A stretch of DNA of 60,000 nucleotides, taken from assembly GCA_038087875.1 (NCBI GenBank), contig CM075992.1, positions 1,676,001 through 1,736,000 of the forward strand, written 5' to 3'. The stretch comes from Malacoraja senta. Its lineage: Eukaryota. The notes below the pieces were generated by a model, which did no database searches, was not told the DNA's origin, and saw only the letters and a list, made by a program, of their open reading frames with translations. Position numbers and translations under genes: made by a program. Below are positions 1,457-60,000 of this stretch, piece after piece (the first letter of the stretch is position 1; each line of letters begins with the position of its first letter).

Positions 1457-2055
1457 GGGGGAACATACTGTGGTGAGTTGAGCAAGGTTTAATACTTACA
1501 GGGGGTGAAAGTACAAGTGGCAGAGAGAGAGAGAGAGAGCATTTTGGCCTTTTTCCCCACTTTTTGGTGGGTGAAAGTTGCCTGCAGCAGCCCCCCCCCC
1601 CCCCCCCCCCCAGTGGTACGAAGGAATTTGCTCCTAGCCTCCAAATGTCAGGTCGTACTCCCCTCCTGTCATATGACCTGATGACAAGTGATAAGAGCAG
1701 AATAAGGCCATTCGGCCCATCCAGTCTACTCTGCCATTCAATCATGACTGATCTATCTCTCCCTCCTAAACCCATTCTCCTGCCATCTTTCCCATAACCC
1801 CGGACACCCGTACCAATCAAGAATCTATCTATCTATCTCTGCTTTAAAGATACCCACTGAATTGGCCTGCGCAGCCTTCCGTGACAAAGAATTGCACAGA
1901 TTCACCGCCCTCTGACTAAAGAAATTCCTTCTCATCTCCTTCCTCAAGGAAGGTCCTTTTATTCTGAGGCTGTGACCTCTGGTCCTGGACTCTTCCGCTA
2001 GTGGAGACATCCTCCCCCACATCCAAGCCCTGGATACACCTGTGGGCTGGCGTAC

Positions 2056-32532
<30,477 letters not shown>

Positions 32533-33130
32533 GGCGCCGACGTGAGGCTTTCTCCGATCCCGATCCGATCCGATCCCGGCCGCGCCCCCGGACTCGCTCA
32601 CTCCCAGCGCCTGCGGCCTGCGCTTCCGCTCCCGCCCAGACCCTCCCATTGGCCAGCGCCGCCGTCACTCAGCCCGGACAACCAATGACAACTCCGGTCT
32701 GAGAAAAGGGGGCGGGCTTCAGCCGGTGCAACTCGGATTGGGCAAGACCGCCGTCAATCGCCAGGAGCAACCAAATCAAACCGCACTACTGGAAACGGGG
32801 CGGGCAATAGGGGCGTCATTATTGTGCAGCTCTACTCTGATTGGGCGCGATCGCCGTCAATCCCGGCAAAGAGGGCGGGCTTTAGCTCACGTCACACGCG
32901 CAGCCTCTAACCTGATTGGGTTAGACCACAGTCAATGTCGTACGAGCTCAGCCCCATTGGTCCATTCCTGTGTCGGGTTTTGCATAACACACGCCCACCA
33001 CCGTCCCCATTGGTTGGTAGAGACGTCATTTATTCGGACGCCGGCGGTGATTGGTCTACGCGCCTTGGTCCCGCCCCCTCCGCGCGGCCATGACGTCATG
33101 TCCCCGGGGCTCCGGCTTCCATGGCCTCTG
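32533..33130 (-). promoter_or_regulatory. DNM2 CpG-island promoter/5'UTR with multiple CCAAT boxes, GC boxes and a CRE
   Basis: CpG-rich; ATTGG/CCAAT at about 32648, 32682, 32737, 32840, 32915, 32956, 33009, 33050; GGGCGG at ~32710, ~32798, ~32873; TGACGTCA at ~33091. Confidence 0.8.
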
Positions 33131-33342
33131 ATGATGTCACCCGGGCCCGGGGGTGTTTACCGTCGCCATGGAGACGCAGAGTGCTGGAGTCACCCAGTGG
33201 GTCACAGGCAGCATCTCTGGAGAGATGTTTATTGTCATGTGTCCCAGGTAGGACAATGACATTCTTACTTTGCTTCAGCACAACAGAATATAGAAGGCAC
33301 GAATACAGAACAGATCAGTGTGTCCATATACCATTATATAAA

Positions 33343-39907: not shown

Positions 39908-40041
39908 TCAGTGTGGCCGGGTGCTGGACTCGGAGCTGTGACGGGTGCGCAGTATGGAGTGTCCATTCACAAAGCCATTGCGTTTGGTCAGGCCACCTGC
40001 CAGGATATCCTGAATGTGCTGCACAATCAGGTTGATGGCAA
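39908..40041 (-). CDS. UCK exon 7, terminal coding ([44 protein letters not shown])
   Basis: 134 nt including TGA. Confidence 0.94.
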
Positions 40042-43000
40042 CTGGAATGAGAAAAGAAAGATTTCAAATGCATGCCACAATCAAACCTGCCAACTGCTCA
40101 TTTCACTTTCCAACACCCCCCCCCCCCCCCCTCCCCTTCAAGTTTCCACACCTTCATGGATTAGGTTCACAAGTTACAGGAGTAGAATTAGGCCATTCGG
40201 CCCATCGAGTCTACTCCACCATTCAATCATGGCTGATCTCTGGCTCCTAATCCCATTTTCCTGCCTTCTCCCCATAACCCTTGTCACCCGTTCTAATCAA
40301 GAATTTGTCTATCTCTGCCTTAAACGTATACACTGACTTGGCTTCCACTGCCCTCTGTGGCAATGAGTTCCACAGATTAACTACCCTCTGACTAAAGAAG
40401 TTCCTCCTCACCTCCTTTCTAATTCTTTAATTTAAATTTAATTTAATTCTGACTACGCCTGATAAAGCAGTTTTTTGCATTCCAGCCCTCTTGATATAAT
40501 CGCTAGCATTGAATTTGCCTTCCTTACTACCGAGTCGACTTGCAAATTAACTTTATGGGAGTCCTGCACCAGCATTCCGATTTCTGGATTCTCCCCCCTT
40601 TTAGAATATAAGGACATAGGAAAAGTGCCAAGGGGTGAGGCTGGGCTGGCGACAGAAGTACTGTGCACCGCAGAACCTCCTGACGATTTACAAGAAGATA
40701 AGAGGTTTGGAATGAATAATAAAGGAGAAAGCAAAATGCCACTGGTGAGTCAATCAATTGATGATTGTCTTGGCCAAGGTCCAAAATGTGTGAGAGGCAG
40801 CATTGTTTTCTGTTCTATGTAAAGGAAATGGAAATAGATGCCATCAATTAACTTTATTGAAGATTATTACACTCATGTTCCAGGAATACAACATTACTGG
40901 CAAAGCCAGCATTTATTATCCACCCTTACACACACCGAGTAGATGGTAGAGGTGATCGCTTGTCATTCAGGGTTCCCTATTCCTGCCAGCCTTGTCCTTC
41001 ACTCTCAGAGGAACGTTTTGGTTTTGAACACTCCCCAGCTCAATTAAAAAAAAACAACTCAGGTATCAGAAATGTCTGAAGAAGGGTCTCGACCCGAAGC
41101 GTCACCTATTCCTTCGCTCCATAGATGCTGCCTCACCCGCTGTGTTTCTCCAGCATTTTTGTCTGCTCACGTATCAGACCCGTTACCTGTAAATTGGCAC
41201 CACCAATAAACTTTTCTAAGTTCTTAGTTTTGTTTAGAGATACAGCACGGAAACAGGTCCACCAAGTCCACGCCCACCAGCGATCCCCGCATATTAACAC
41301 TATCCTACACACACTAGCGACAATTTACATTTATACAAAGTCAATTAACCTACAAACCTGTATGCCATTGGAATGTGGGAGGAAACCGAAGATCTCTGGA
41401 GAAGACGTACAAACTCCGTACAGACAGCACCCGTAGCTGGGATCTAACCCGGGTCTCTGGCGCTGTAAGGCAGCAACTCTACTGCTGCGCCACCGTGCTG
41501 ATGGGACAAGGCTGATTTTGATGATATTAGATAAGATGGGGGATCTTGTCTAATATCATCAAAATCAACCTTGTCAGAAATTAGGAATCCTACATTTGGA
41601 CCAGTCCTATCCATTTTCGTAATATTAAAAAAACTAATGGAATTATCATCACTAGTGCCCCCCCCCCCACGAATAGCTCATTCACCCGTCCTGCCTTATT
41701 CCCCCCCCCCCCCCCGCAAGTCATGTTTTGCCCCTCCTCTAACGGGGGCATCTACATATTGACTGAGAAGATTTCCTGAACACACTTAACAAATTCCACT
41801 CCATCCACACCCTTAGAGCTATGGCAATCCATTTGCAAAGTTAAAATCCCCCACCATTCTTTGCCACAGAAGACCGTGGAGGCCAAGCCAAGGGATATTT
41901 TTAAGGCAGGGATAGATAGGTTCTTGATTAGTACGGGTGTCATGGATTTTGGGGAGAAGGCGGGAGAATGGGGTTAGGAGGGAGAGATAGATCAGCCTTG
42001 ATTGAATGGCGGAGTAGACATGATGGGCCGAATAGCCCAATTTTGCTCCTACCACTTATGAGAACCCCTAATATTTGATTGAAGTAAAAGATACAGCATG
42101 GACCAGTGTCCACACCAACCACTGATCACCCATTCAAACCAGTTCTACATTATCCCACTTTCTCATCCACTCTTTTGTCTTTGATCAACTAGACTCTGAC
42201 AACTTGCTTTCGTTTTCTAGGCTCACTTTATTTACTTTGCACAAGGAGAGAGGCACAGCGCCAGTTACCGAGCAACTCGAACATTCTGCTCGGAAGTCGC
42301 AACTTTTATACAGACTTTGATCAATTGAAATCTCTTAATTCCTTATCACCAACCACAATACGTTCTTAAAAGCATTAATATATAATAAAAACAACATGCC
42401 ATTTAATCCTGTTTACATTTAATCTTACAAGATAACTCTCAAGGTCCTTGTACTGTAGTTTCAGCTGGCTGCATGTCAAAGGACGTCTTTGAAATGCTGC
42501 ATGTACAAATGCCCTCGTGCTGTACAGCTATCCCAACCTTTGTCATACTGCAGCTTCCACAGCTCCCCACACACCCCGAGCAATCTTTATAGAGGCCAAT
42601 TAACCTACAAACCTGGAGGAAAGAATTGCGTATGCTGGTTTAAACCAAAAATGACACAAAATGCTTGAGTAACTCAGCGGGTCAGGCAGCCTCTCTGGAG
42701 AAAAGGAACAGGTGATGTTTCGGATCGAGACCCTTCTTCAGACTTAAGGAGGATTCTGAAGAAGGACCTTGACCTGAAACGTCACCTATTCCTTTTCTCC
42801 AGAGAGGCTGCCTGACCCGCTGGGTTACTCCAGCATTTTGTGCCTATCTTCAACCAACAAACCTGCACGTCTTGGGATGTGGAAGGAAATCGGAGCACCC
42901 GGAGGAAACCCACTCTGTCACAGGGACAGCACCCAAGGTCAGGATCGAACCCGGGTCTCTGAACACTGCTCTACCAGCTGTGCTACTATGCTGCCAAATT

Positions 43001-46000
43001 CTACAACCCTACAATTGTCTGGTCTAACTCTTTTACATCTGGTACAACATGTTATGGAACAACTGGGCAACCTGTGTAAGATGGAACAGCAGATGCTGGT
43101 GCACACCCGAAGGGAGACACAAAATGCTGGAGTAACTCAGCGGGACAGGCAGCATCTCTGGAGAGAAGGAATGGGTGACGTTTTGGGTCAAGACTCATCA
43201 ACTTGCTGGTGGGTCTGGAGTCACTCAGGCTAGATTTTCTCCCTTGATGAACATTACAACCCACCAGTTCTTGTGATTACTGATGAGGTTTTTTCCTTCA
43301 AATTAACAATTATATCCAAATTCCCCAAAAACAGTGATAGATTTTAATGCCTCTGGACTGTCTAGCTCTCTGGATACCATACTCTTAAAGCATGAGTGGA
43401 CACGGTGGGCTAAATGGCCTAATTCTACTCCTATAACTTGTGAAAACCTTCTAACCCAGGCATTGTGTGGTGAGGTGCCTTCTAATCATCATACTGACAA
43501 GGCAAATCAGTTGGGTGTGAACTCACCTAGATTTTCGACTCCCCGGGGGATAATAACATCAGCATATTTCTTGGTCTACGGATGAGAACGACAATCAATT
43601 AATCCAGATGCAAGGACCATTGCTGCAACAAAGAGGCATCCAAGTGGGGGCCAGCCCTCACTCAGCAGGTGAGAGACTGCCCTCTGGTCCCTGCAGGGCT
43701 GACATTCAATGACAGCAAGGAGAGCGGTGACCAGACCATTCCCAGTACCCCAACCACAGAGTCCCCGCTCACCGGAAGGCAGAACTCCTCGAAGGCAGGC
43801 TTGACGAATGTAGTGTACTGCGTCAGGATCTGCTCCAAATCACGGCCCCGCTCGTTGATGTCTCGCAAAACTGAGATGTGAGGAGAAATAAATTTAACAC
43901 CTTGAAGAGGCACGGTGGCGCAGCGGTAGAGTTGCTGCCTTACAGCGCTTGCAGCGCCGGAGACCCGGGTTCAATCCCGACTACGGGTGCTGTCTGTCCA
44001 AAATAGTTTGGAGGACATATTCCTCCAGGGAAAGGTGCGGGGATGAGGAGACGGCTTTCGAGAAGCTCTCTGGGGTGGGTCTGCCCTATTAGGGGTGATT
44101 ATATGAGAAGGCAACAGGTAAGGAAGGGAATCCTGGGAATTGGTGTAGGATTGGGAATGAATCCTCACATCTTGGTCCTCCAAACTATTTTGGCCCCTGT
44201 GTCAGGGCAAGGATGAACATGAGTGAGGGGCTGTATCTCGGCCTGTGTTTGGAGCAGGGCGCATGGCAACTCAAGAGACTGCAGATGCTGGAACCTTGAG
44301 CAAAAGCAGTGCTGGAGAAACCCAGCGGGTCAGGCAGCATCTGTGGATGAGGCTTTGGGTTGGGACCCTTCTGCAGGACATGGCACGAGGCTCCAGCACG
44401 GTTTGGGTCTTGAGGCAATTTTCCCTGCTCTCATCTACTCCCCTGGTCCTTGCATGCTCTTTCCAATCCCAGCATCTATCCGGGTGCGGAGTTTGTGTAG
44501 CAAACGTTCAAGCGGTTCTGAAGGAGGGTCTCGAACCAAAATGTATCAATCCCAGCCCACAGATGTCCATCGGCGACCACCTGGTGAATTCCTCCCTCCC
44601 TCCCTCCCTCCCTCCCGCTCGCCCGCCTGCCTAGCGCAGAGCCCTCACCTCTGCGAGAGAGACGCGTGTCGGCATCTGTATCAACGAAGAGCTTCATGTG
44701 GAACATATCCCTGATCTCCTGGCAATAGAAAACCAGAATGCCCTCGAAAAGAACCACATCTGCGGGATAAACTGGCACCATCTCTGGCTTCCTGCAAGAA
44801 GAAACCTCGTCATATCTGCTCATCACAGGACCATAACACAGGCATGGACTATCTCTGTCTTTTATCCAGACCCATCTTCCTCCATTCAACCCACTCCTTC
44901 TGTTTGTATTCATGATGAATAAGCTCACGCTCTTAAGTTCTAGGAGCAGAAGTAGGCCATTCGGCCATCGTGTCTATTCTGCCATTCCATTATGGCTGAT
45001 CTATCTCTCCCTCCTAACCCCATTCTCCTGCCTTCTCATCATAACCCCTGACACCCGTACTAATCAAGAATCTGTCAATCTCCGCCTTAAAAATACCCAG
45101 TGTCTTGGCCTCCACAGCCGTCTGTGGCAATGAATTCCACAAATCCACCACCCTTTGACTAAAGAAATTCCTCCTCATCTCCTCCTCAAATCCGTTTATT
45201 CTGAGGCTATGGACTCTGGTTCGAGACGCGCCCATTAGTGGAAACATCCTCTCCACATCCAGTCTATGCAGGCTTTTCACTATTTGGTAAGATTCTATGA
45301 GGTCTCCCTTCATCCTCCTACACTCCAGCGAGCACAGGCCCAGTGCCATCAAACGCTCATCATATGTTAAACTCACACTTCTCTCTTCTTTTTAACACCC
45401 TTCCTTGGTTTGCGAAACATTGGGTTTATCAGTGTATAATTTGATTCTGCCCAAGGCCTCATTTCCTATGTTTCCCACACCAATCTCTTTAAAGCCTGGA
45501 TAATTTCCGCAGACAAGATGAAAGATGCTACCACACTACCTCACGCCTCCCTCCCTTAGTTTATGTGTGGAGAGGGCTATTGGTGTGTAGGCCAATCCAT
45601 CCCACCTCAGGCTTCACAGGAATCCTATGAAGTGGCACCAGACCCATTATCCCTCTGTGAAGCAAAGTATCGAATAATGAAAGGCTTGGATACATATCCA
45701 CTCTATCCAGGCCCTTCACTGTTTTGTAAGTTTCAATGTCCCCCTCTTCCTTCTAAACTCCAGCGAGTAAGTCAAGAGAGTTTATTGTCATGTGTCCCTG
45801 ACAGGACAATGAAATTCTTGCTTTGCTTCAGCACAACAGAACATAGTAGGCATGAATACAGAACAGATCAGTGTGTCCATATACCATTATATACGTAAAT
45901 ACACACATGAATAAATAAACTGATAAAGTGCAGATAACAGATAATGGGCTATTAATGTTCAGAGTTTTGTCCGAGCCAAGTTTAATAGCCTAATGGCTGT

Positions 46001-48849
46001 GCGGAAGTAGCTATTCCTGAACCTGGTCGTTGCAGTCCCAGAGTAGAGGCCCAACACCGTAATTTGAGGGCTTAAGTAATAATCGCAGCTGCTCTGATAC
46101 AAACCGTGAATGATTAACAAAGTCATAGACTGGAATCAGCACCGTCCTCCCGTTGATAATATCCTTGAGGGTGCGGAGAATCAGCACGTTGTCAAATGCA
46201 TCTGTGGATGGCAGAAAGGCAGAGTTGTCAGTGGGCTGAGTCTGGAGACAGCAGCAGGAGACAAAACCCAGTCACGATGCCCATGTAACACAAAGTCAAC
46301 CCCAGACAGGGAATCTCCTCTGCAACTCGTATTTCACTTGGGTAGTTCACACCCCAGCAGTATGAACATTGACTTCTCAAACTACAGATTGCCCTTGCTT
46401 TCTCTCTCCATCCCCTTCCCAGTTCTCCCACTTGTCTTACTGTCTCTGACCACATTCTATCTTTGTCCCGCCCACTCTCCTGACATCAGTCTGAAGAAGG
46501 GTCTCGACCAGAAACGTCACCCATTCCTTCTCTCCAGAGAGATGCTGCCTGTCCCACTGAGTTACTCCAGCATTTTGTGTCTACCTTTGATTTAAACCAG
46601 CATCTGCAGTTCTTTCTTACACAAATCTCCTGCACCTACCCAACCCTTCGCCTCATCCTGCAAGGCTGCCTCCGTCTCCATCCACAATGTCCCTGCCCCT
46701 AAGGGCGGCACAGTGGTAGAGTTGCTGCCTCACAGCGGCAGAGACGCAGGCTGACTATGGCTGCTATCTGTACAGAGTTTGCACGTTCTCCCTGTGAACG
46801 TGTGGGTTTCCTCTGGGTGCTCTGGTTTCCTCCCACACTCCAAAGACGCGCAGGATTGTAGATTGTAGGTGTGAATTCTGTAAATTGTCCCTAGTGTGTG
46901 GGATAGAACTCGTTGGCTGGCAATCACCTGTACACGTGGACAGTGGGATGAAAGGCCTGTTTCCCTGCTGTATCTCTAAACTAAACTAAACCAGCTCCCC
47001 CCTCACAACTCTCAGTGACCCTCCCATGGGCACTTATGCTCCTCAACCCTCTCCTCCCATTGTCTTAGTTCCTTTTCAAACCATTCCTCCAATTCGACGA
47101 CCCTGAAAAAAATCATCCACGCATTTATCTCCTCCCGCCTTGATTACTGCAACTCCCTACACACTGGCATCAGCCAATCATCCATGTCCCGCCTGCAATT
47201 GGTCCAAAACGCCGCAGCGAGACTTCTGACGGGTACCCGTAAAAGGGACCACATCACCCCGATTCTGGCCTCTCTCCACTGGCTCCCTGTACAGTACAGA
47301 ATCAACTTCAAGCTCCTCCTATATGTATACAAAGCCCCTAACAGGCTTGCCCGCCCCTATATCAAAAATCTGCTAACCCACCATTCTACCTCCAGGTCCC
47401 TCAGGTCGGCCTACTTGGGGCTACTGACTATCCCGCGGTCCAGGTTTCACCTCAGGGGCGACCGCGCTTTTGCGGTTGCAGCACCTAGACTGTGGAACAG
47501 CATCCCTCTTCTCATCAGAACTGCCCCCTCCATCGACTCCTTTAAGTCTAGACTTAAAACCTATTTCTACTCACAAGCGTTTCTTGAGGTCCTCTGAGGG
47601 AGCGCTGTAAAGAGTTTATGTATGTATTGTTAGATCTGTGTACCATTGCATGTAGCATGTTAGTACCTTGAGACTTTTGAAAGGCGCCCATAAATAAAAT
47701 TTATTATTATTATTATTATTACCTGCACTGATGTAAAGCACTTTGGTCAACGAGAGTTGTTTTTAAATGTGCTATAGAAATAAAATTGACTTGTCTCCAC
47801 TATAGTCCCTTATCATGCACCTACCTATACACTGTAAATTGCTCGATAGTAATCATCTGTGGTCTTTCTGGTTAGCACGCAACAAAAGCTTTTCACTGTA
47901 CCTCTGTACAAGTGACAATGAACTAAACACGTTTACTCCCAATAAACCGCTGATAAGGCCGCAGACGGCAACAGGATCAACAAACTCACCGGGAAGGCTG
48001 GCTCCGTCCTGGGGGTGGAGTTGGATTCATGGGAGGTGGTCTTGGAGTGGAGGATGCTCCTCAAACTGCGGAGCATCCTGGACAATACAGCTCACACCCC
48101 CCCCCCCCTCCATGACACACTGGTCAACCTGAGGAGCACCTTCAGCAACAGACTGGTCCCACCAAGATGCAGCACAGAACGCCACAGGAGATCCTTCTTC
48201 CCTGTGGCTATCAAACTGTACAACCCCTCCTCCTTCTGTAGTGGGGTAGACTGAGACTGACTGACTGACTCCCCTCCTCTCCTCTCCCACACCCCCCACA
48301 TGTTTGCACATCCCCAATCCTTTCCACTCCTTTCTTTTAGGACCAAGATGAGAAAAAAAATTCATACAGAGAGTGGTGAATCTGTGGAATTCTCTGCCAC
48401 AGAAAGTAGTTGAGGCCAGTTCATTGGCTATATTTAAGAGGGAGTTAGATGTGGCCCTTGTGGCTAAAGGAATCAGGGGTATGGAGAGAAGGCAGGTATA
48501 GGATACTGAGTTGGATGATCAGCCATGATCATATTGAATGGCGGTGCAGGCTCAAAGGGCCGAATGGCCTACTCCTGCACCTATTTTCAATGTTCATGTA
48601 TCTTGTGTTTTTATGACTGTTGGCAGATCAATTTCCCTCCTGGGACAAATAAAGTTCTATCGAATCGTATATTGAAAGCGGGCGATTACCTGGATGATCG
48701 AAGTTATACTGTCCCTTGCTGGCCTTGACCCTCTGCTCTGTGGTCAGCACCTTATAGAAGCTGTCCTGGCTCAGAATCACCACCTGCCTCTGGTCTTGAT
48801 CCACTTTATTCTGTCCCAGCAGATCAACAATTTTCTGACACACAGATGA
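39908..48849 (-). CDS. Uridine-cytidine kinase (UCK1/UCK2 family, UCK2-like C-terminus), exons 2-7; exon 1 (P-loop) missing at the gap
   Basis: Exons 48690-48849, 46105-46201, 44649-44791, 43773-43870, 43527-43575, 39908-40041 join in frame (681 nt = 226 aa + TGA). Motifs [62 protein letters not shown]-terminus ESSTRPH*. Confidence 0.95.
41505..41575. repeat. Near-perfect inverted repeat (33-bp arms, 5-nt loop)
   Basis: GACAAGGCTGATTTTGATGATATTAGATAAGAT-GGGGG-ATCTTGTCTAATATCATCAAAATCAACCTTGTC. Confidence 0.9.
43527..43575 (-). CDS. UCK exon 6 ([16 protein letters not shown])
   Basis: 49 nt, donor gtgagt. Confidence 0.94.
43773..43870 (-). CDS. UCK exon 5 ([33 protein letters not shown])
   Basis: 98 nt, donor gtgagc. 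Confidence 0.95.
44649..44791 (-). CDS. UCK exon 4 ([22 protein letters not shown]...DTRLSRR)
   Basis: 143 nt, donor gtgagg. Confidence 0.95.
44940..45376 (-). mobile_element. CR1 LINE 3' fragment
   Basis: ORF 45014..45376 ([21 protein letters not shown]...SRTR.HSLRI...[16 protein letters not shown]). Other CR1 tails at ~1690-2030, 2382-2600, 5000-5270, 19735-19935, 35430-36005, 36875-37010, 40175-40420, 41860-42060, 48355-48590, 49450-49765, 50175-50520, 53290-53500. Confidence 0.88.
46105..46201 (-). CDS. UCK exon 3 ([33 protein letters not shown])
   Basis: 97 nt, donor gtttgt. Confidence 0.93.
47085..47720 (+). mobile_element. L2-clade LINE 3' fragment
   Basis: [61 protein letters not shown]; (ATT)n tail. 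Confidence 0.9.
48690..48849 (-). CDS. UCK exon 2 ([17 protein letters not shown]...QYNFDHP)
   Basis: 160 nt, cag|TCA ... G|gtaat. Confidence 0.95.
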
Positions 48850-49859: not shown

Positions 49860-50059
49860 NNNNNNNNNNNNNNNNNNNNNNNNNNNNNNNNNNNNNNNNN
49901 NNNNNNNNNNNNNNNNNNNNNNNNNNNNNNNNNNNNNNNNNNNNNNNNNNNNNNNNNNNNNNNNNNNNNNNNNNNNNNNNNNNNNNNNNNNNNNNNNNNN
50001 NNNNNNNNNNNNNNNNNNNNNNNNNNNNNNNNNNNNNNNNNNNNNNNNNNNNNNNNNNN
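49860..50059. other. Assembly gap (200 N)
   Basis: Run of exactly 200 N; its right edge cuts a QTRT1 exon. Confidence 0.99.
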
Positions 50060-50094: not shown

Positions 50095-53000
50095 GTAAGA
50101 GAGAGCCACTGTACATAACTATCTGCCTCATGGTATGAATCCTCCCTTCACCCAACAATGACCTCTCCCTTATATAGAAACATAGAAAATAGGTGCAGGA
50201 GTCAGCCATTCAATATGATCGTGGCTGATCATCCAACTCAGTATCCTGTACCTGCCTTCTCTCCATACCCCCTGATCCCTTTAGCCACAAGGGCCACATC
50301 TAACTCCCTCTTAAATATAGCCAATGAACTGGCCTCAACTACCTTCTGTGGCAGAGAGTTCCAGAGATTCACCACTCTCTGTGTGAAAAATGTTTTTCTC
50401 TCGGTCCTAAAGGATTTCCCCTTTATCCTTAAACTGTGACCCCTTGTCCTGGACTTCCCCAACATCGGGAACAATCTTCTTGCATCTAGCCTCTCCAACC
50501 CCTTAAGAATTTTGTACGTTTCTATATCTGGCAGTGGGACCCAACCCTTGCTTACCAGCCTTTGTCTGCATCTTCATATAAACCTCTCCAATAGACCCTC
50601 CCATCTATATATATCACAATCACAATAATACTTTATTAGCCAAGTATGTTTTGCAACATACGAGGAATTTCATTTGCCAAGTTAGTCATACAAATAAACA
50701 GCAACGGAACACACAAAATCCATTTTAACATAATGAATGAATGAATAAGTTAATGGGCCAAGTATTCACATACAAGGAATTTGCCTTGGTGCTCCACCCG
50801 CAAGTGACAACGACATACAGTGACAGTTAGGAATGACATCCACCACAGTGACTCCTCCATATTCCTCACTGTGATGGAAGGTGAAGAAAAGTTCAAATCT
50901 TTTCCCTTAGCTCTCCCGCGGTCGAGGGCCTCGAGCCCTCTGTTGACGGGACAATCTTGACTCCCGTAGCCGGCGGCGTTTGCGCCCTCCTCATCGAATC
51001 GATCAGCTCCTGCATCGGGGGGGGTGTCAGCTCCCCCGCGCCGGACGATCGGACCCTGCGTCGGGGGTGGTCAAGCCTCTGTGTCATTGGAGCTTCCAGA
51101 CTAGCCTCTCCCAAGAGACCATAAAACATAGCAGCAGAATTAGGCCATTCAGCCCATCGAGTCCACTCTGTTATTCGATTATGACTGATCTATTTTTCCC
51201 TCTCAATCCTATTTTGATATCAGTGGAGGATCTGCTATTGAAAATTCACTGTGTGGAAGTTGTGGATTTTAACCGAACCTTGGCGCAGGGATAGAGCTGA
51301 CCAAACGTATACTGGACGATGGTTTTGCTGAACACCTTCGCTCAGTCCACCTGAACCTACCTGATCTCCCGGTTGCCAAACACTTTAATTCTCCTTCCCA
51401 TTCCCACGGTCTCTTCCATTGTCAGAGTGAGGCTAAACGCAAATCGGAGGAACAGCATTTCATATTTCGCTTGGGCAGCTTACAGCCCAGTGGTATGAAT
51501 ATTGATTTCCCGAACTCCAAGTAACCCCGGCATTCCCTCTCTCTCCCCCACCCAAGTCGCACCAGCTTCTCGTTTTCACCCAACAAACAGCTAACAGTGG
51601 TCCTGTCTCCTTTATCATTGTTACTTTCTTGCAAATCTTTCATTCATTATTATTTATCTCTCCACGTCATCGTCTGTATCTCTCGTTTCACTTTCCCTAA
51701 CCAGTCTGAAGAAGGGCCTCGACCCGAAACGTCACCCATTCCTTCTCTCCAGAGATGCTGCCTGTCCCGCTGAGTTACTCCAGCATTTTGTGTTTATCTT
51801 CGGTTTAAACCAGCATCTGCAGTTCCTTCCTCCACATAGAACTGAATTGATTGCTGACAAAAGGGAGGCATATATCTCACTGGGGTTAGGAGTTGATGGA
51901 TGGAGGACATGATATATCTGTTGTATGTACAGTGTAGGGGCAACCAGAATACACGAGTTATCCATCTAGTTTAGTGTAGTTTAGAGATACTGCGCGGAAA
52001 CAGACCATTCGGCCCACCGAGTCCGTGCTAACCAACGATTCCCACATATTAATACTATCCTACACACAGTCAGGACAATTTTTACATTTACCAAGCCAAT
52101 TAACCTACAACCCTGGGTACACAAAAATGCTGGAGAAACTCAGCGGGTGCAGCAGCATCTATGGAGCAAAGGAAATAGGTAACGTTTCGGGTCGAATCCC
52201 AAAGGAAATAGGTAACGTTTTGGGCCGAAACCCTTCTTCAGACACTTCTTTAACACAACCTACAACCCTGTATGTCTTTGGAGTGTGGGAGGAAACGGAA
52301 GAAAACCACGCAGGTCACGGGGAGAACGTACAAACTCCGTACAGGCAGCACCCGTAGTCGGGGTGGAACCCGGGTCTCCGGCGCTGTGGGGCAGCAACTC
52401 TACCGCTGCGCCACCGTGACCGCCCTGAATCTTATAGACCATAGAATGCAGAGTGTAGGGGGGGACCAGATTACATGTGTTATGCATTGTGTACTTGAGG
52501 TTTCTAACCTCGTCTTTCCTTGCCTCTGACCAGGTATGCAACAGATCTGGTGGTTTGTGTGGCTCTTGGCTGCGACATGTTTGACTGTGTGTTTCCCACA
52601 AGGACAGCGGTAAGCATTTTGTTGATGCAGTTCAGTTTAGTTCATTGTCACGTGCACCGAGGTACAGTGAAAAGGTTTTGTTAGAGTCATAGAGTGATAC
52701 AGTGTGAAAACAGGCCCTTCGGCCCAACTTGCCCACACCGGCCAACAATGTCCCAGGTACACTCGTCCCACATATCCCTCCAAAACAGGTCCTATTCATG
52801 TACCTGTGTTTAAGAAGGAACTGCAGATGCTGGAAAATTGAAGGTGCACAAAAATGCTGGAGAAACTCAGCGGGTGCAGCAGCATCTATGGAGCGAAGGA
52901 AATAGGCAACGTTTCGGGTCGAATCCCAAAGGAAATAGGTAACGTTTTGGGTCGAAACCCGAAGGGTTTCGGGCCGAAACGTTGCCTATTTCCTTCGCTC

Positions 53001-55435
53001 CATAGATGCTGCTGCACCCGCTGAGTTTCTCCAGCATTTTTGTGTACCTCCTATTCATGTACCTGTTTAACTGTTTCTTAAACGATGGGATAGTCCCAGC
53101 CTCAACTACCCCCTCTGACTGCGTGCTATCCGGTCAGCGGAAAGACAATACATGATTACAATCGAATCACTCACAGTGTGTAGATACATGATAAAGGGAA
53201 TAACGTTTAGTGCAAGATAAAGTCCGATTAAAGATAGTTTGAGGGTCTCCAATGAGATAGATAGTAGCTCAGGACTGCTCTCTAGTTTGGTAGCTGTGTG
53301 GAATGAGCTTCCAGTGGAAGTGGTGGAGGCAGGTTCGATTTTATCATTTAAAAATAAATTGGATAGGTATATGGACGGGAAAGGAATGGAGGGTTATGGT
53401 CTGAGTGCAGGTAGATGGGACTAGGTGAGCGTAAGTGTTCGGCACGGACTAGAAGGGCCGAGATGGCCTGTTTCCGTTCTGTAATTGTTATATGGTTATA
53501 GTTGTGGTAGGATGGTTCTGTTGCCCGATAGCAGCTGGGAAGAAACTGAGCCTGAATCTGGAGGTGTGCGTTTTCACAGTTGCGTGATGGGAGAGGGGAG
53601 GAGAGTGACCGGGGTGCGACTCGTCCTTGATTATGCTGCTGGCCCTGTACAGTAGAACAAAATAATTTGGTTCGTTGCTGAGGAGGGTGATTGTATCTTA
53701 AGCTTACTTACTATCCTATGAGCAGATGGTGGGAGCAGATGTCAATAGGAGAATGGATGGAATTGTGATCCACAGTTAAATGAGAGACTTTGTCAATGAA
53801 TGCGATTGCTAATTGATAAAATTATCTCTTGGCATGAATTAAAGGATTCAAAGTTTAGTTTAGTTTAGAGATACAGTGCGGAAACAGGACGTTCGGCCCA
53901 CTGAGTCCGCGCCGAACAGCGATCCCCGCACACTAACACTATCCTACAAACACTCGATTTACTATTTTAACCAAGCCAATTAAACTGCAAACTTGTACGT
54001 CTTTGGAGCATGGAAGGAAACTGGAGATACCGGAGAAAACTCCGTACAGAGAGCACTAGTAGTCAGGATCGAACCCGGGTCCATGGCGCTGTAAGGCAGC
54101 AACTCCACCGCGCCGCCCTATTTTAAGGATAAGGGTTTTTAAAAAAAAATTTAAGGATATAAAGAGTCAGGCCAAATGACGCCAACCTATTTGCTAAGAC
54201 AGACACAACATACTGGAGTAACTCAGCGGGACAGGCAGCATCTCTGGGGAGAAAGAATGGGTGACGTTTCAGGTCGAGGCCCTTCTTCAGACTCAGCAAA
54301 TCTATTTGCTAAGATGCAACTAATGAATGAGAAATAACGCGGACGAGAAAATGGACCCAATTTGGGGTAGAGACATGGGGTAAGGAACTTGGAATGAGGG
54401 GCCAATGTGCAGACGTGGGAGATGTCTGAGGAGTGCTTGCACTTGGGCCCCTGTTTGCCGTTCACTTCAGCTCAGCCATCTAATCCTTCTCTGATCTCTC
54501 AGCGGTTTGGCTCAGCGCTTGTTCCCTGGGGATCGCTGCAGTTGAAACACAGACAATACGCCAAGGATTTCAAGCCTATCGACGAGGAATGCACCTGTCC
54601 TACCTGCAAGAGGTAAGAGATGAGGCCATTTGCATTGTGCGTCTCTGATTTGCTGATGGCCACCGTTACTTGAGGGCAATTCTGTTGCGTTACTGAACTC
54701 CACGTAAACATGGTTGCCTGACTACTTCGCGGCCGCAGTACCTCTACAGGGTTCGGGTTGGGGGCTGTTCACTTTGGTTGTTGAGTTAATTTGTCAGAAC
54801 TGCTCTTTTGTGTCAACAGGTATACACGAGCATATCTCCACGCCTTGTTCAAGAGTGACACGGCCGCACTCCACCACATCACGATCCACAACATTGCATA
54901 CCAGGTAGGTAGAAACATAGAAAATGGGCTGAGATGCTGTAATAATTACCGCACTGTTTCTATAGGGCTTATTTAACACCCTAATTTAGGGCAGCACGGT
55001 GGTGCAGCAGTAGAGTTACTGCCTTATAGCGCCAGAGACCCAGGTTCAATCCTGACTATGGATGCTCTCTGTACGTTCTCCCTGTGGGTTTTCTCAGTGA
55101 TCTTCGGTTTCCTCCCACACTCCAAAGACGTGCAGGTTTGTAGGTTAATTGGCTTGGTATAAATGTAAATTGTCCCTGGTTTGTGTGTAGGATAGTGTAA
55201 GTGTGCAGGGACCGCTGAAGACTCGGTGGGCCTGATTCCGTGCTGTTATCTCTGAACTAAACCAGTTGCCTCCGTTTTCTAGTTGAACCTGATGAGCTCC
55301 ATCCGTGAAAGCATTCAGCAGAGGAGGTTCCCGGAGTTCATCCAACAGTTTATGAAGCGGATGTACGGAAGTGCCGACAAATACCCACGCTGGGCGGTTG
55401 ATGCACTCAGTGCAGTCAACGTTAAGTTGGAGTAG
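50060..55435 (+). CDS. QTRT1: Queuine tRNA-ribosyltransferase catalytic subunit 1, 3' half (5' exons lost in the gap)
   Basis: Exons 50060-50094 ([12 protein letters not shown], truncated), 52534-52609 ([25 protein letters not shown]), 54503-54612 ([10 protein letters not shown]...CTCPTCKR, Zn ligands), 54820-54904 (YTRAYLHAL...IHNIAYQ), 55283-55435 ([11 protein letters not shown]...VKLE*); all GT-AG and in frame. Confidence 0.96.
51300..51832 (+). mobile_element. Penelope-like element 3' remnant plus terminal repeat
   Basis: [19 protein letters not shown] remnant followed by the same terminal module; similar remnants at 23525-23890 (-), 9530-10075 (-), 46315-46620 (+). Confidence 0.75.
52534..52609 (+). 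CDS. QTRT1: QTRT1 exon 7 (catalytic DMFDCV motif)
   Basis: 76 nt, cag|G ... GCG|gtaag. Confidence 0.96.
54503..54612 (+). CDS. QTRT1: QTRT1 exon 8
   Basis: 110 nt, CxCxxC zinc motif. Confidence 0.96.
54820..54904 (+). CDS. QTRT1: QTRT1 exon 9
   Basis: 85 nt, zinc-ligand His in IHN. Confidence 0.96.
55283..55435 (+). CDS. QTRT1: QTRT1 terminal coding exon
   Basis: 153 nt ending in TAG. Confidence 0.95.
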
Positions 55436-55626: not shown

Positions 55627-57052
55627 TGGGGCTGTCCCACTGTACGAGCTAATTCAAGAGCTCTCCTGAGTTTAAAAAAAATCAAGCTCGTGGTAAGCAC
55701 GTAGAATGTACGTAGCGGGTACGTCGGAGCTCGGCACGTCTCTTAGCGGCTCGTAACGCTAACGGCAGGTACTCGGGAAACGTGGTAAGCTCATGAAGAT
55801 TATTCAACATGTTGAAAAATGTCGACGAGAGCCCCAAGTACCTACGAGCGGCTATTACCGTAATTCTACGAGTTCGAATCAGGGAAACTCGGGAGAACTC
55901 TTGATTTCAAGTCAAGTCAAGTGAGTTTATTGTCATGTGTCCCTGGTAGGACAATGAAATTCTTGCTTTGCTTGAGCACAACAGAACATAGTAGGCATTT
56001 ACTACAAGGCATTCTATAAATATATACACAATGGTCAATATACTGATAAAAGTGCAAATAACAGTATTGGCTAGTAAAGTTCAGTGTTATGTCCGAGCCA
56101 GGTTCAATAGCCTGATGGCTGTGGGGAAGTAGCTGTTCCTGAACCTGGTCGTTGCAGTCTTCAGGCTCCTGTACCTTCTACCTGAAGGTAGTAGGGAGAT
56201 GAGTGTGTGGCCAGGATGGTGTGGGTCCTTGATGATGCTGCCAGCCTTTTTGAGGCAGCGACTGTGGTAGATCCCCTCGATGGAAGGGAGGTCAGAGCCG
56301 ATGATGGACTGGGCAGTGTTTACTACTTTTTGTAGTCTTTTCCTCTCCAGGGCACTCAAGTTGCCGAACCAAGCCACGATGCAACCGGTCAGCTTGCTCT
56401 CTACTGTGCACCTGTAGAAGTTAGAGAGAGTCCTCCTTGACAAACCGACTCTCCGTAATCTTCTCAGGAAGTAGAGGCGCTGATGGGCTTTCTTAATAAT
56501 GGCATCATTGTTCTCGGACCAGGAAAGATCTTCAGAGATGTGCACGCCCAGGAATTTGAAGCTCTTGACCCGTTGATATAAACGGGACTGTGGGTCCCCA
56601 TCCTACTCCCTCCAAAGTCCACAATCAGTTCCTTGGTTTTGCTGGTGTTGAGGGCCAGGTTGTTGTGCTGGCACCATATGGACAGTTGCTCGATCTCTCT
56701 TCTATACTCTGACTCATCCCCATCAGTGATACGTCCCACAACAGTGGTGTCATCAGCTAACTTGATGATGGAGTTCGCACTATGTCCAGCTACGCAGTCA
56801 TGAGTATAGAGTGAGTACAGCAGGGGACTGAGCACGCAGCCTTGAGGTGCTCCCGTGCTAATTGTTATCGAGTCTGACACATTTCCACCAATACGAACAG
56901 ACTGTGGTCTGAGAGTGAGGAAGTCGAGGATCCAATTGCAGAGGGATGCGCAGAGACCCAGTTCTGCGAGTTTGGTAACCAACTTGGAGGGGATGATTGT
57001 GTTAAATGCCGAGCTGTAATCGACGAATAACAGCCTGTACAGGACAGCCCCA
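55627..57052. mobile_element. PIF/Harbinger-like MITE interrupted by a LINE
   Basis: Ends TGGGGCTGTCC...GGACAGCCCCA flanked by TAA on both sides. Confidence 0.7.
55906..57036 (-). mobile_element. Rex1/Babar-like LINE, 5'-truncated, frameshifted reverse transcriptase
   Basis: [29 protein letters not shown] (mutated FADD), [22 protein letters not shown]; short-repeat tail (GACTT)n. Confidence 0.9.
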
Positions 57053-57189
57053 TAAAGCTGCTCCCTCACAGCTAGGGACTCTGGTTCAATACTGATTTTT
57101 TTTTTTTTTTTAACAGGATTTTTTAAATGTTGTGACAGGGTCCAGTTAAAGCTGCATTGGACTAATCTCCTGCTGTTTGTATTCCAGCT

Positions 57190-57635
57190 CAATGTGCTGG
57201 TCAACCTAGAGCCTCTGTTGAGTCCCTCCCCTCCCCCCACCTTTGAGATTTATGCAAATAATTTTTTTTTAGTGGTCTGAATTGGTAAGTTTCAATCCAA
57301 CAAACACTGCTCCATGAATAAGGGATTATTTAGACAATGCCTTCACCTCCCAGGCCATTAGTAAACAATGTGCTGATGTTGTCAAAGGGTGGCTGCAATC
57401 CATATTTGGGCTGGTTGGTTATGTTTGTGATGCTGATGAAAGGTCACCCAATTGTCAACTCAAGGGCTTTTAAAGCATCTAGAAATGGATATCAGAACCT
57501 CTTCACTGGGTGCACTCTGACCATCTCTAGTGACATAGCCTTTCAAGGTTGTAGCTCAAGAGACATACAGCAAACAGTGTAGGAAGGAACTGCAGATGCT
57601 GGTTCAAACTATAGACATAAAATGCTGGAGGAACT
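57190..57635. repeat. Direct duplication, copy 1 (copy 2 at 59555 to window end)
   Basis: Apparently identical sequence at offset 2365; ORFs 57337..57582 and 59702..59947 are identical. Confidence 0.95.
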
Positions 57636-57931: not shown

Positions 57932-57953
57932 TTTATTTTAGAAACATTTTATT
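57932..57953 (-). terminator. ILF3 polyadenylation signals (two AATAAA)
   Basis: tttatt at 57932-57937 and 57948-57953, ~0.9 kb after the stop. Confidence 0.7.
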
Positions 57954-58835
57954 GAACCACTGAGGAAGGTCAACCGCAATACTGTTCAACTAATACAGGG
58001 GAAAAAAGTACAAAACATGGTCTCTTAAAATAATCACACAATTATAAAACTAAACCGGGAAAAGGAAAAGTACATTCCAGAACAAAGCTCCACTTCTAGA
58101 CAGCTGCAAGAAAAAAATCATTGAGGAGTTATACATTACAGAGGACGGGATATTAAAGCATCACAACTGCCAGGCAAAAAAAAGACCCATTAAAGTGAAT
58201 CACTGGAACCTGTTTGCTTAGGTGCACCATTTTAAAATCTAATTTTAAAAAGGAACCATTGATGGTGCCGATAACACAGGGATTGGAATAATTAAAAAAA
58301 AAGAGGGGTTCTGCTTTAGTATTACAGCATTTGGGGCCACAAAAACAAAAAGGGAATCTTCATTCAGTATAAGCCAACACCAAGTTGATCTGTTGTGATC
58401 TTTGTCAGTACAGTATCTTATCCAACACAGGGCACTATTTGGTCAGTAGTTGACAGCAATGCCCACTACCAAGGCCTTTGTTCACTACCTTCTGAGAAAA
58501 AATAATAATTTAACATTTTATACAATTATGACGATGCAGAATTATTGAAGTGGGCTCTCTGCCACAGCAAAATTGAAGGCAGCCTGTGCCAATTAGTTGG
58601 TGGTGCTGGAATTCCAGTCAAGATTCTACACACTACAATATAGCATCACATACCACAGCACTACTTACTAGAGGAATGCTATTAATCTCAACCATAAGAG
58701 TCTGCAGTGCTCATGGAAAATGGTCATACAGGGCGTTTTTTAAAATTCATTGGCAGCATAAAAAAAGATACAGCAGTTAGAAAATAAAACAGAAGGGATA
58801 TAGGGTTTTCTATGACAGGTCCTAGACATGACGAT

Positions 58836-58963
58836 TTATCTGTATTGATAGGTGTTCATGTGGTCCCCTCGGCTATAGCCCCCACCAGGGCTCGAATAGG
58901 ACGACTGACCGGAACCATATCCTCCAGATATTGGTGCATTATAGCCACTCTGGGATGAGTACC
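58836..58963 (-). CDS. ILF3: ILF3 (NF110 isoform) last coding exon (GYSSQSGYNAPISGGYGSGQSSYSSPGGGYSRGDHMNTYQYR*)
   Basis: cag|GG acceptor; GQSY-rich tail ending ...YQYR* as in NF110; ILF3 neighbours QTRT1 and DNM2 in human. Confidence 0.88.
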
Positions 58964-59554
58964 CTGTGGATGATTTAGTGTTAGAATTGGACAGTTACAT
59001 AGAATACCAAATATTCCATCAAGAAACTTTTACTCTTCCCTCAGATGTAGCAGCCTAACGTGCTGAGTATTTCCAGAAGTTTCTATTTCTATTTTACATT
59101 TCCAGCATCGTTTTCTTTTAAATTTCACCATTAAATCTAATGAGCCAGCTTCTACCACCCTCATTGGGGGGCATTCCAGAGATTCACCACCCACTGAGAG
59201 ATAACATTTTTGCACATCTTAATTTTTCTTTATTTTGTAGGAGAGATGTTATTATTATAGATTGCAGATGCGCTGCTCATACTTTAAATAGAGCTACATA
59301 ATCTACCTCCCAATCTACAAGAACATTTTTTTTAAACACAGCAATATCAAAACCAACACAATCAATTTCAGATAATTCTCTTTAATAACCTGAGAACGCA
59401 GGACAATTTTTAAATTGTAATATTAAAACCTTGGATCGTCAAACTAAATTAATCACTATTTCCAGAATTCAATTAATTTTAAAATGCAGTTTATTCTTTT
59501 ATAATTTAAATATTTGGAAATTCATCACCAAATGCTTTAAACTCTTCTCACCCA

Positions 59555-60000
59555 CAATGTGCTGGTCAACCTAGAGCCTCTGTTGAGTCCCTCCCCTCCC
59601 CCCACCTTTGAGATTTATGCAAATAATTTTTTTTTAGTGGTCTGAATTGGTAAGTTTCAATCCAACAAACACTGCTCCATGAATAAGGGATTATTTAGAC
59701 AATGCCTTCACCTCCCAGGCCATTAGTAAACAATGTGCTGATGTTGTCAAAGGGTGGCTGCAATCCATATTTGGGCTGGTTGGTTATGTTTGTGATGCTG
59801 ATGAAAGGTCACCCAATTGTCAACTCAAGGGCTTTTAAAGCATCTAGAAATGGATATCAGAACCTCTTCACTGGGTGCACTCTGACCATCTCTAGTGACA
59901 TAGCCTTTCAAGGTTGTAGCTCAAGAGACATACAGCAAACAGTGTAGGAAGGAACTGCAGATGCTGGTTCAAACTATAGACATAAAATGCTGGAGGAACT
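59555..60000. repeat. Direct duplication, copy 2
   Basis: Matches 57190-57635 to the window end. Confidence 0.95.

Follow-up and report, generated by a model that had tools for sequence, protein, structure and literature searches.

What is a uridine-cytidine kinase (UCK) gene doing beside the dynamin-2 gene, DNM2? This question is raised by a 60,000-nt stretch of the genome of the skate Malacoraja senta (GCA_038087875.1, contig CM075992.1, positions 1,676,001 to 1,736,000; hereafter the window). We found that the gene belongs to a group of chondrichthyan proteins, here called the UCK2-like clade, which is clearly a lineage of its own and whose exact attachment to the UCK tree is moderately supported. 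The gene is most probably the sister of UCK2 from the second round of genome duplication, placed in quadrant D (the beta copy) of its paralogon, and its clade is known only from cartilaginous fish.

The UCK gene of the window and its predicted activity

Six UCK exons were found on the minus strand (48849-39908; Table 1), separated by GT-AG introns, with AG at 6/6 acceptors and GT at 5/5 donors, and joined in an open frame of 226 codons plus TGA (681 nt) with 0 internal stops. A UCK profile, run on every one of the window's 3480 six-frame segments, matched the six exons at E values of 1e-6 to 5e-29, and nothing else reached E<=1. The splice sites, open frame and profile search thus bear out a sequence-only reading of this stretch, which had placed six in-frame UCK exons between DNM2 and QTRT1, and all of the UCK motifs it quoted are present in the window sequence. 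Over the 226 residues, the protein is 98.2% identical to that of Leucoraja, 97.8% to that of Amblyraja and 96.0% to that of Rhinoraja; 222/226 residues match the little skate ortholog (P0002), and none of the 4 that do not is catalytic. P0002 itself scores 175.6 bits with PF00485, against a gathering cut-off of 22. The exon layout resembles that of UCK2, a seven-exon gene according to the part of PMC9163393 covered. Exon 1, which carries the P-loop, was not found in the window by tblastn with four orthologs, and the best E that a profile built from 14 exon-1 peptides gave there was 0.13, compared with E values of 1e-7 or below when the peptides are truly exon 1. It is probably hidden by a 200-N assembly gap, and related skates, rays and sharks and a chimaera have annotated full-length orthologs that include it. 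Neither the missing exon nor the gap figures in the sequence-only reading. A retrocopy origin was also considered and was ruled out, since the gene keeps all of its introns.

Residues are numbered here as in human UCK2. According to the part of PMC9163393 covered, Asp62 is catalytic, Ser34 and Glu135 are Mg ligands, Asp84 and Arg166 serve the ribose, and Tyr112 and His117 serve the base. All 14 active-site positions checked within the window exons match UCK2 (Ser34, Asp62, Asp84, Tyr112, His117, Glu135, Arg166, Tyr65, Phe83, Ile137, Arg169, Arg174, Arg176 and Gln184), and six positions of the P-loop region, including Lys33 of Walker A, are conserved in 14/14 aligned orthologs, their exon lying outside the window. 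Because the catalytic and substrate residues are all kept, the gene is predicted to encode a functional pyrimidine-salvage enzyme that phosphorylates uridine and cytidine; it would be expressed and active. As in human UCK2, ATP-Mg would be bound via the P-loop, Ser34, Asp62 and Glu135, and the ribose 5'-OH would be activated by Asp62. Ribonucleosides would be chosen over deoxyribonucleosides through Asp84 and Arg166, while Tyr112 and His117 would admit uridine as well as cytidine, yielding UMP and CMP for pyrimidine salvage. No new mechanism is indicated by this gene.

A separate lineage in cartilaginous fish

The best PDB match of P0002 was vertebrate UCK2 (human UCK2, 1XRJ and 1UEJ; EC 2.7.1.48), at 426.6 bits versus 400 for UCK1. 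The window gene is like UCK2 in the identity of the tested active-site residues, in its short C-terminal tail and in the presence of residue 172, the latter two in agreement with the extra residue and short C-terminus singled out by the sequence-only reading. With UCK1 it has in common the fold family, the active site and the residues Tyr81, Thr186 and Val212; however, it is only 77% identical to UCK1, differs at 14/17 diagnostic columns, lacks the deletion at 172 and has the shorter tail. These diagnostic columns, at which UCK1 and UCK2 differ almost invariably, show the UCK2 state in the clade at 13 positions, the UCK1 state at 3 (81, 186 and 212) and a state of its own at 1. The mixture of UCK1 and UCK2 residues described earlier is therefore real, though lopsided, and some of the residues listed there as UCK1-like fail to separate the paralogs. 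The UCK2-like clade nevertheless stands apart from UCK2, with fixed residues of its own (Ala24, Gln38 and Ser77) and only 80-84% identity to UCK2 of the same species (11 pairs). Position 24, before the P-loop, is Ala in 14/14 clade members and Gly in the other 40 vertebrate rows, and position 26 is Gly in 11/11 shark and ray UCK2 rows and Ser in the clade, UCK1 and lamprey.

In a lamprey-rooted maximum-likelihood (ML) tree of 55 rows and 255 columns, support was 99/94 for the UCK2-like clade, 100/99 for UCK1, 96/91 for all UCK2 and 91/90 for the clade together with UCK2, so that the window gene fell outside UCK2 itself. Support for the clade ranged from 99/94 to 100/98 across trees, and the topology (UCK1,(UCK2,UCK2-like clade)) was obtained in all three trees with resolved deep nodes, including the all-row tree. 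One of the trees was rooted with three arthropod outgroups, four long outgroup rows (a tick, a tardigrade and two others) having been removed after a tree with seven invertebrate outgroups had been viewed; here the clade joined UCK2 in 741 of 1000 bootstrap trees (support 74/90), and UCK1 joined UCK2 in 0. Mean core identity of the clade was 83.5% with bony UCK2, 82.3% with shark UCK2, 77.3% with UCK1 and 79.0% with lamprey.

A search with exon 2 returned nine chondrichthyan proteins at 87-98% identity and a partial whale-shark model at 88%, the next matches being at 79% or less. Cluster look-ups named the clade in 23 chondrichthyan species, comprising skates, rays, sawfish, a torpedo ray, many sharks and the chimaera Callorhinchus. 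A separate true UCK2 is named in at least 19 of these 23 species, in look-ups that took in 15 of the 20 members of the main cluster, so the lack of any other UCK2 copy, which the sequence-only reading had linked to a simple translocation, is not what is seen in close relatives. No true UCK2 was seen by name in the chimaera, and the branch of P0161 leaves close to the base of UCK2. Among 577 fetched proteins (the best 120 or 150 matches per search), 44 besides the query had their best match in the clade, all of them chondrichthyan, and none came from a bony vertebrate. The suggestion that the gene was lost in mammals was thus drawn too narrowly, as the loss would seem to extend to osteichthyans as a whole. 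In 9/10 species for which the lengths of both contigs are unambiguous, the UCK2-like gene lies on a smaller contig than UCK2 (12.3 versus 61.9 Mb in little skate), Narcine being the exception; unlike skate Uck2-1 on Leri_10, the window gene lies beside DNM2, usually on a small chromosome. The orthologs carry RefSeq names of the UCK2-like or 2-A-like kind (XP_055520251.1 of Leucoraja, XP_032868188.1 of Amblyraja, XP_042200671.1 of Callorhinchus) and are 86-98% identical to the window protein over 226 residues; the Callorhinchus member (P0242, P0010) is called 'uridine-cytidine kinase 2-A' outright. The suspicion that such genes are mislabelled as UCK2-like fits these names.

Duplication history and alternative origins

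Given that UCK1 lies at human 9q34, we take it to mark quadrant A of the paralogon. Lamb 2021 (PMC8040251, in the part covered) assigns DNM1 to quadrant A, DNM3 to C and DNM2 to D of paralogon 9, locates DNM3 on chicken 8 and DNM2 on gar LG6, and gives ((A,B),(C,D)) as the common topology. In the covered parts of PMC10115646, the supplement places skate Uck2-1 on Leri_10C, and LER10 (=GGA8, 1alpha) has LER39 (part of gar LOC6, 1beta) as its partner in an informal table. With UCK1 in A, UCK2 in C and DNM2 in D, an ohnolog linked to DNM2 is predicted to be sister to UCK2, with UCK1 outside, and this is the ML topology obtained. As for location, the UCK gene lies about 7 kb upstream of DNM2 exon 1 on the same strand with 0 N between, so the linkage holds whether or not the sequence is rightly joined across the gap. 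The dynamin PH exon scored best with Dynamin-2 (72.3 bits; dynamin-1 chains reached 65.6-69.5 and dynamin-3 66.5); for two further dynamin exons the top matches were dynamin-1 and dynamin-3 chains only, no dynamin-2 chain being listed for those parts. That the tree matches the prediction from synteny and that a moved duplicate is unlikely to land on the partner segment are the main argument for the probable origin by whole-genome duplication; the timing of the loss elsewhere is putative. From one chordate UCK at the start, the first round would have parted the UCK1 (A/B) and UCK2 (C/D) sides, and the second would have given UCK2 (C, on the DNM3 chromosome) and the window gene (D, on the DNM2 microchromosome), the latter likely being lost in the bony-vertebrate lineage.

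Several observations weigh against this assignment. The protein is short, and with seven invertebrate outgroups (a tree from which 15 vertebrate rows were left out for speed) the deep nodes did not resolve, a row of the outgroup was placed among the vertebrates, and the clade joined UCK2 in only 255/1000 bootstrap trees; with arthropod outgroups, the clade, UCK1 and lamprey grouped in 177/1000. The approximately unbiased (AU) test rejected none of the alternatives, namely the clade with UCK1 (p = 0.155 and 0.354), with shark UCK2 (p = 0.073 and 0.343) or with bony UCK2 (p = 0.101). When derived states were read by the outgroup, only 3 were common to the clade and UCK2, versus 2 common to the clade and UCK1 (81 and 212). 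Adjacency to DNM2 was seen in the skate window only, the UCK1 and UCK2 loci of the same genome being outside the data, and the absence from bony vertebrates is an absence from the best 120 or best 150 matches. UCK1 is assigned to quadrant A from its human position, and UCK was not found in the part of the table covered in Lamb 2021 (PMC8040251). Since the AU tests reject no alternative, it is synteny that carries the ohnolog case. What had been claimed of a separate paralog stands as regards the lineage of its own, the separate UCK2 and the predicted topology; a position as sister to UCK1 or to shark UCK2 is rejected by neither AU test.

One alternative is that the gene is an ordinary segmental duplicate of UCK2, formed on the gnathostome or chondrichthyan stem and later moved beside DNM2. 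UCK2 is indeed the closest in sequence (13/17 diagnostic columns, 82-84% identity), the clade occurs only in chondrichthyans, the order of genes has been greatly disturbed between chondrichthyans and bony fish in the covered part of PMC10115646, and a grouping with shark UCK2 is left standing by the AU test. However, that grouping appeared in 0/1000 bootstrap trees with seven outgroups and 3/1000 with three, and shark UCK2 is nearer to bony UCK2 (86.0%) than to the UCK2-like clade (82.3%). With its introns all kept, the gene would have had to arrive other than as a retrocopy and to land on precisely the segment that is the paralogous partner to the chromosome of UCK2, which would be a coincidence, and we therefore regard this origin as unlikely. 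A relocation from the DNM1 to the DNM2 chromosome, onto a paralogous segment, would also have to be assumed if the gene were the cartilaginous-fish ortholog of UCK1, with the UCK1 residues arising later in bony vertebrates. Such an origin, which we consider quite improbable, is compatible with the AU test, with the derived residues 81 and 212 common to the clade and UCK1, and with the lack of a chondrichthyan-named UCK1 among the matches described below, although reciprocal loss explains that lack equally. Against it, the clade joined UCK1 in 2/1000 and 28/1000 bootstrap trees in the same two analyses, its identity to UCK1 (77.3%) is no higher than that between bony UCK2 and UCK1 (76.9%), and it has neither the one-residue deletion at 172 nor the longer tail of UCK1. 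A decaying or 5'-truncated copy, or a misassembled neighbourhood, might be suspected from the missing exon 1, the adjoining 200-N gap and flaws in nearby sequence (DNM2 exon 1 changes frame three times, and 446 nt are exactly duplicated); yet the 226 codons are open, the 4/226 residues that differ from little skate spare the catalytic ones, relatives have full-length orthologs with exon 1, and no gap separates the gene from DNM2, so that this explanation seems very improbable indeed.

We then considered whether an origin of the window gene as the sister of UCK2 leaves cartilaginous fish without UCK1. No chondrichthyan-named UCK1 was present among the best 120 matches of tarpon UCK1 (down to 450 bits, with coelacanth, amphibians and mammals included) or among the matches listed in the exon 2 and UCK2 searches, and UCK1 was seen only in bony vertebrates among the matches listed. 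Shark UCK2 scores about 15 bits below tetrapod UCK2, and a shark UCK1 would be expected at about 455-480 bits; against the floor of 450 it should be listed, only just. A lungfish-named UCK1 was likewise not among these 120 matches, which weakens the shark absence, and P0361, which adjoins coelacanth UCK1, could not be assigned. The absence of UCK1 from chondrichthyans thus has weak to moderate evidence. Tentatively, with chances that we put a little below even, the losses were reciprocal: cartilaginous fish would have lost UCK1 and kept the DNM2-linked copy, bony vertebrates the opposite (hidden paralogy), and the enzyme would fill the slot of mammalian UCK1. If shark UCK1 is truly absent, this would be a clear case of reciprocal ohnolog loss, in which each lineage has two UCKs, different ones. 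The earlier description of a 'third UCK' therefore applies at the level of the family, and in these genomes, where no chondrichthyan UCK1 was found, the gene may be the second copy.

Ohnologs kept on one side only belong to a known class. In the covered part of Marletaz et al. 2023 (PMC10115646), 19 ohnologs, e.g. wnt6b and cspg5, were kept in chondrichthyans and lost in bony fishes, and the window gene shows the same pattern, a copy from the two rounds (2R) that sharks and skates have and bony vertebrates lack. No description of the UCK2-like clade as a separate ohnolog was found in the literature, supplement tables being covered in part; papers on 'UCK3', judged by titles or abstract starts, held nothing on a vertebrate paralog; and neither uck1 nor uck2 was found in the covered parts of the supplements of PMC10208646, PMC10927551 and PMC8040251. 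The separate status of the annotated UCK2-like genes is thus apparently unreported, although the window gene may already figure in supplement parts beyond those covered, above all among the 68 ohnologs listed as differentially retained. A third vertebrate UCK lineage would be added, and about two dozen chondrichthyan proteins named 'UCK2-like' or '2-A' would likely represent a separate ohnolog with its label to be corrected, besides providing the Notch/DNM/PBX paralogon with a new marker of its DNM2 (beta) segment. According to PMC9163393, UCK2 surpasses UCK1 in efficiency by a factor of 15-20 and serves to activate drugs that are nucleoside analogues; a natural paralog with UCK1 residues at 81, 186 and 212 on a UCK2-like frame would help to ask which changes slowed UCK1.

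Neighbouring genes and other features

Table 1. Features of the window (positions counted from its first letter)
Feature	Position	Strand	Remarks
Dynamin-2 gene	2001..32533	-	GTPase, middle, PH and GED exons (Pfam); lower end approximate
CpG island	32251-33250		At dynamin-2 start
UCK exon 7, coding part	39908..40041	-	134 nt including TGA; short tail of UCK2 length
UCK exon 6	43527..43575	-	49 nt
UCK exon 5	43773..43870	-	98 nt; Arg169, Arg174, Arg176, Gln184; residue 172 kept (absent in 13/13 UCK1 rows)
UCK exon 4	44649..44791	-	143 nt; Glu135 (Mg ligand), Arg166
UCK exon 3	46105..46201	-	97 nt; base-specificity residues Tyr112, His117
UCK coding exon 2	48690..48849	-	160 nt; Ser34 equivalent, catalytic Asp62, Tyr65, Phe83, Asp84
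Assembly gap, 200 N	49860..50059		About 1 kb upstream of UCK exon 2; between UCK and QTRT1
QTRT1, last four coding exons	52534..55400	+	TGT profile 238-355; end approximate
Gly/Ser/Tyr-rich last coding exon, ILF3-like	58836..58994	-	From translation; no Pfam match

DNM2 exon 1 (32370-32533, minus strand) has three frame switches within about 160 GC-rich bases, and the other dynamin exons found are open reading frames (ORFs); the switches are most likely consensus errors and not the mark of a pseudogene. Two exons at about 12480-12665 and 14975-15120 (minus strand) both match the Dynamin_M profile at 181-241, and presumably correspond to the alternative dynamin exons 10a and 10b. The start of DNM2 intron 1 (30700-32300) holds a degenerate tandem array, strongly C-rich on the minus strand, with a GC skew of 0.48 in the 30-32 kb bin.

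On the other side of the gap, no TGT match before profile position 238 was found among the plus-strand ORFs scanned, and only one additional TGT exon came from 66 further plus-strand ORFs (at least 20 aa) lying between the gap and 54.7 kb. UCK and QTRT1 stand head-to-head on opposite strands with both 5' ends facing the gap, which suggests a head-to-head pair whose promoter is unassembled; the gap would then also hide the first QTRT1 exons and a shared promoter region. QTRT1 is convergent with the ILF3-like exon (57950-59000, minus strand) and opposite to DNM2, and no gap lies between QTRT1 and that exon. We tentatively read the latter exon as ILF3 from its resemblance to the ILF3 C-terminus and from mammalian gene order, rather than from a database match. 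In human, QTRT1, ILF3 and DNM2 all run in one direction, and the different skate orientation points to an inversion of local extent in one of the lineages. The cattle genes follow one another as SLC44A2, ILF3, QTRT1, DNM2 and TMED1, UCK not being among the genes listed in the covered part of PMC5633919.

An exact direct duplicate of at least 446 nt (57190-57635 and 59555-60000, the latter reaching the window end) flanks the ILF3-like last exon and its 3' untranslated region, and is either a recent duplication or an assembly artefact. A broken RVT_1 reverse-transcriptase fragment of a long interspersed nuclear element (LINE) type lies at 56090-57249 on the minus strand, and repeats resembling LINEs or short interspersed nuclear elements (SINEs) occupy most introns in the window.

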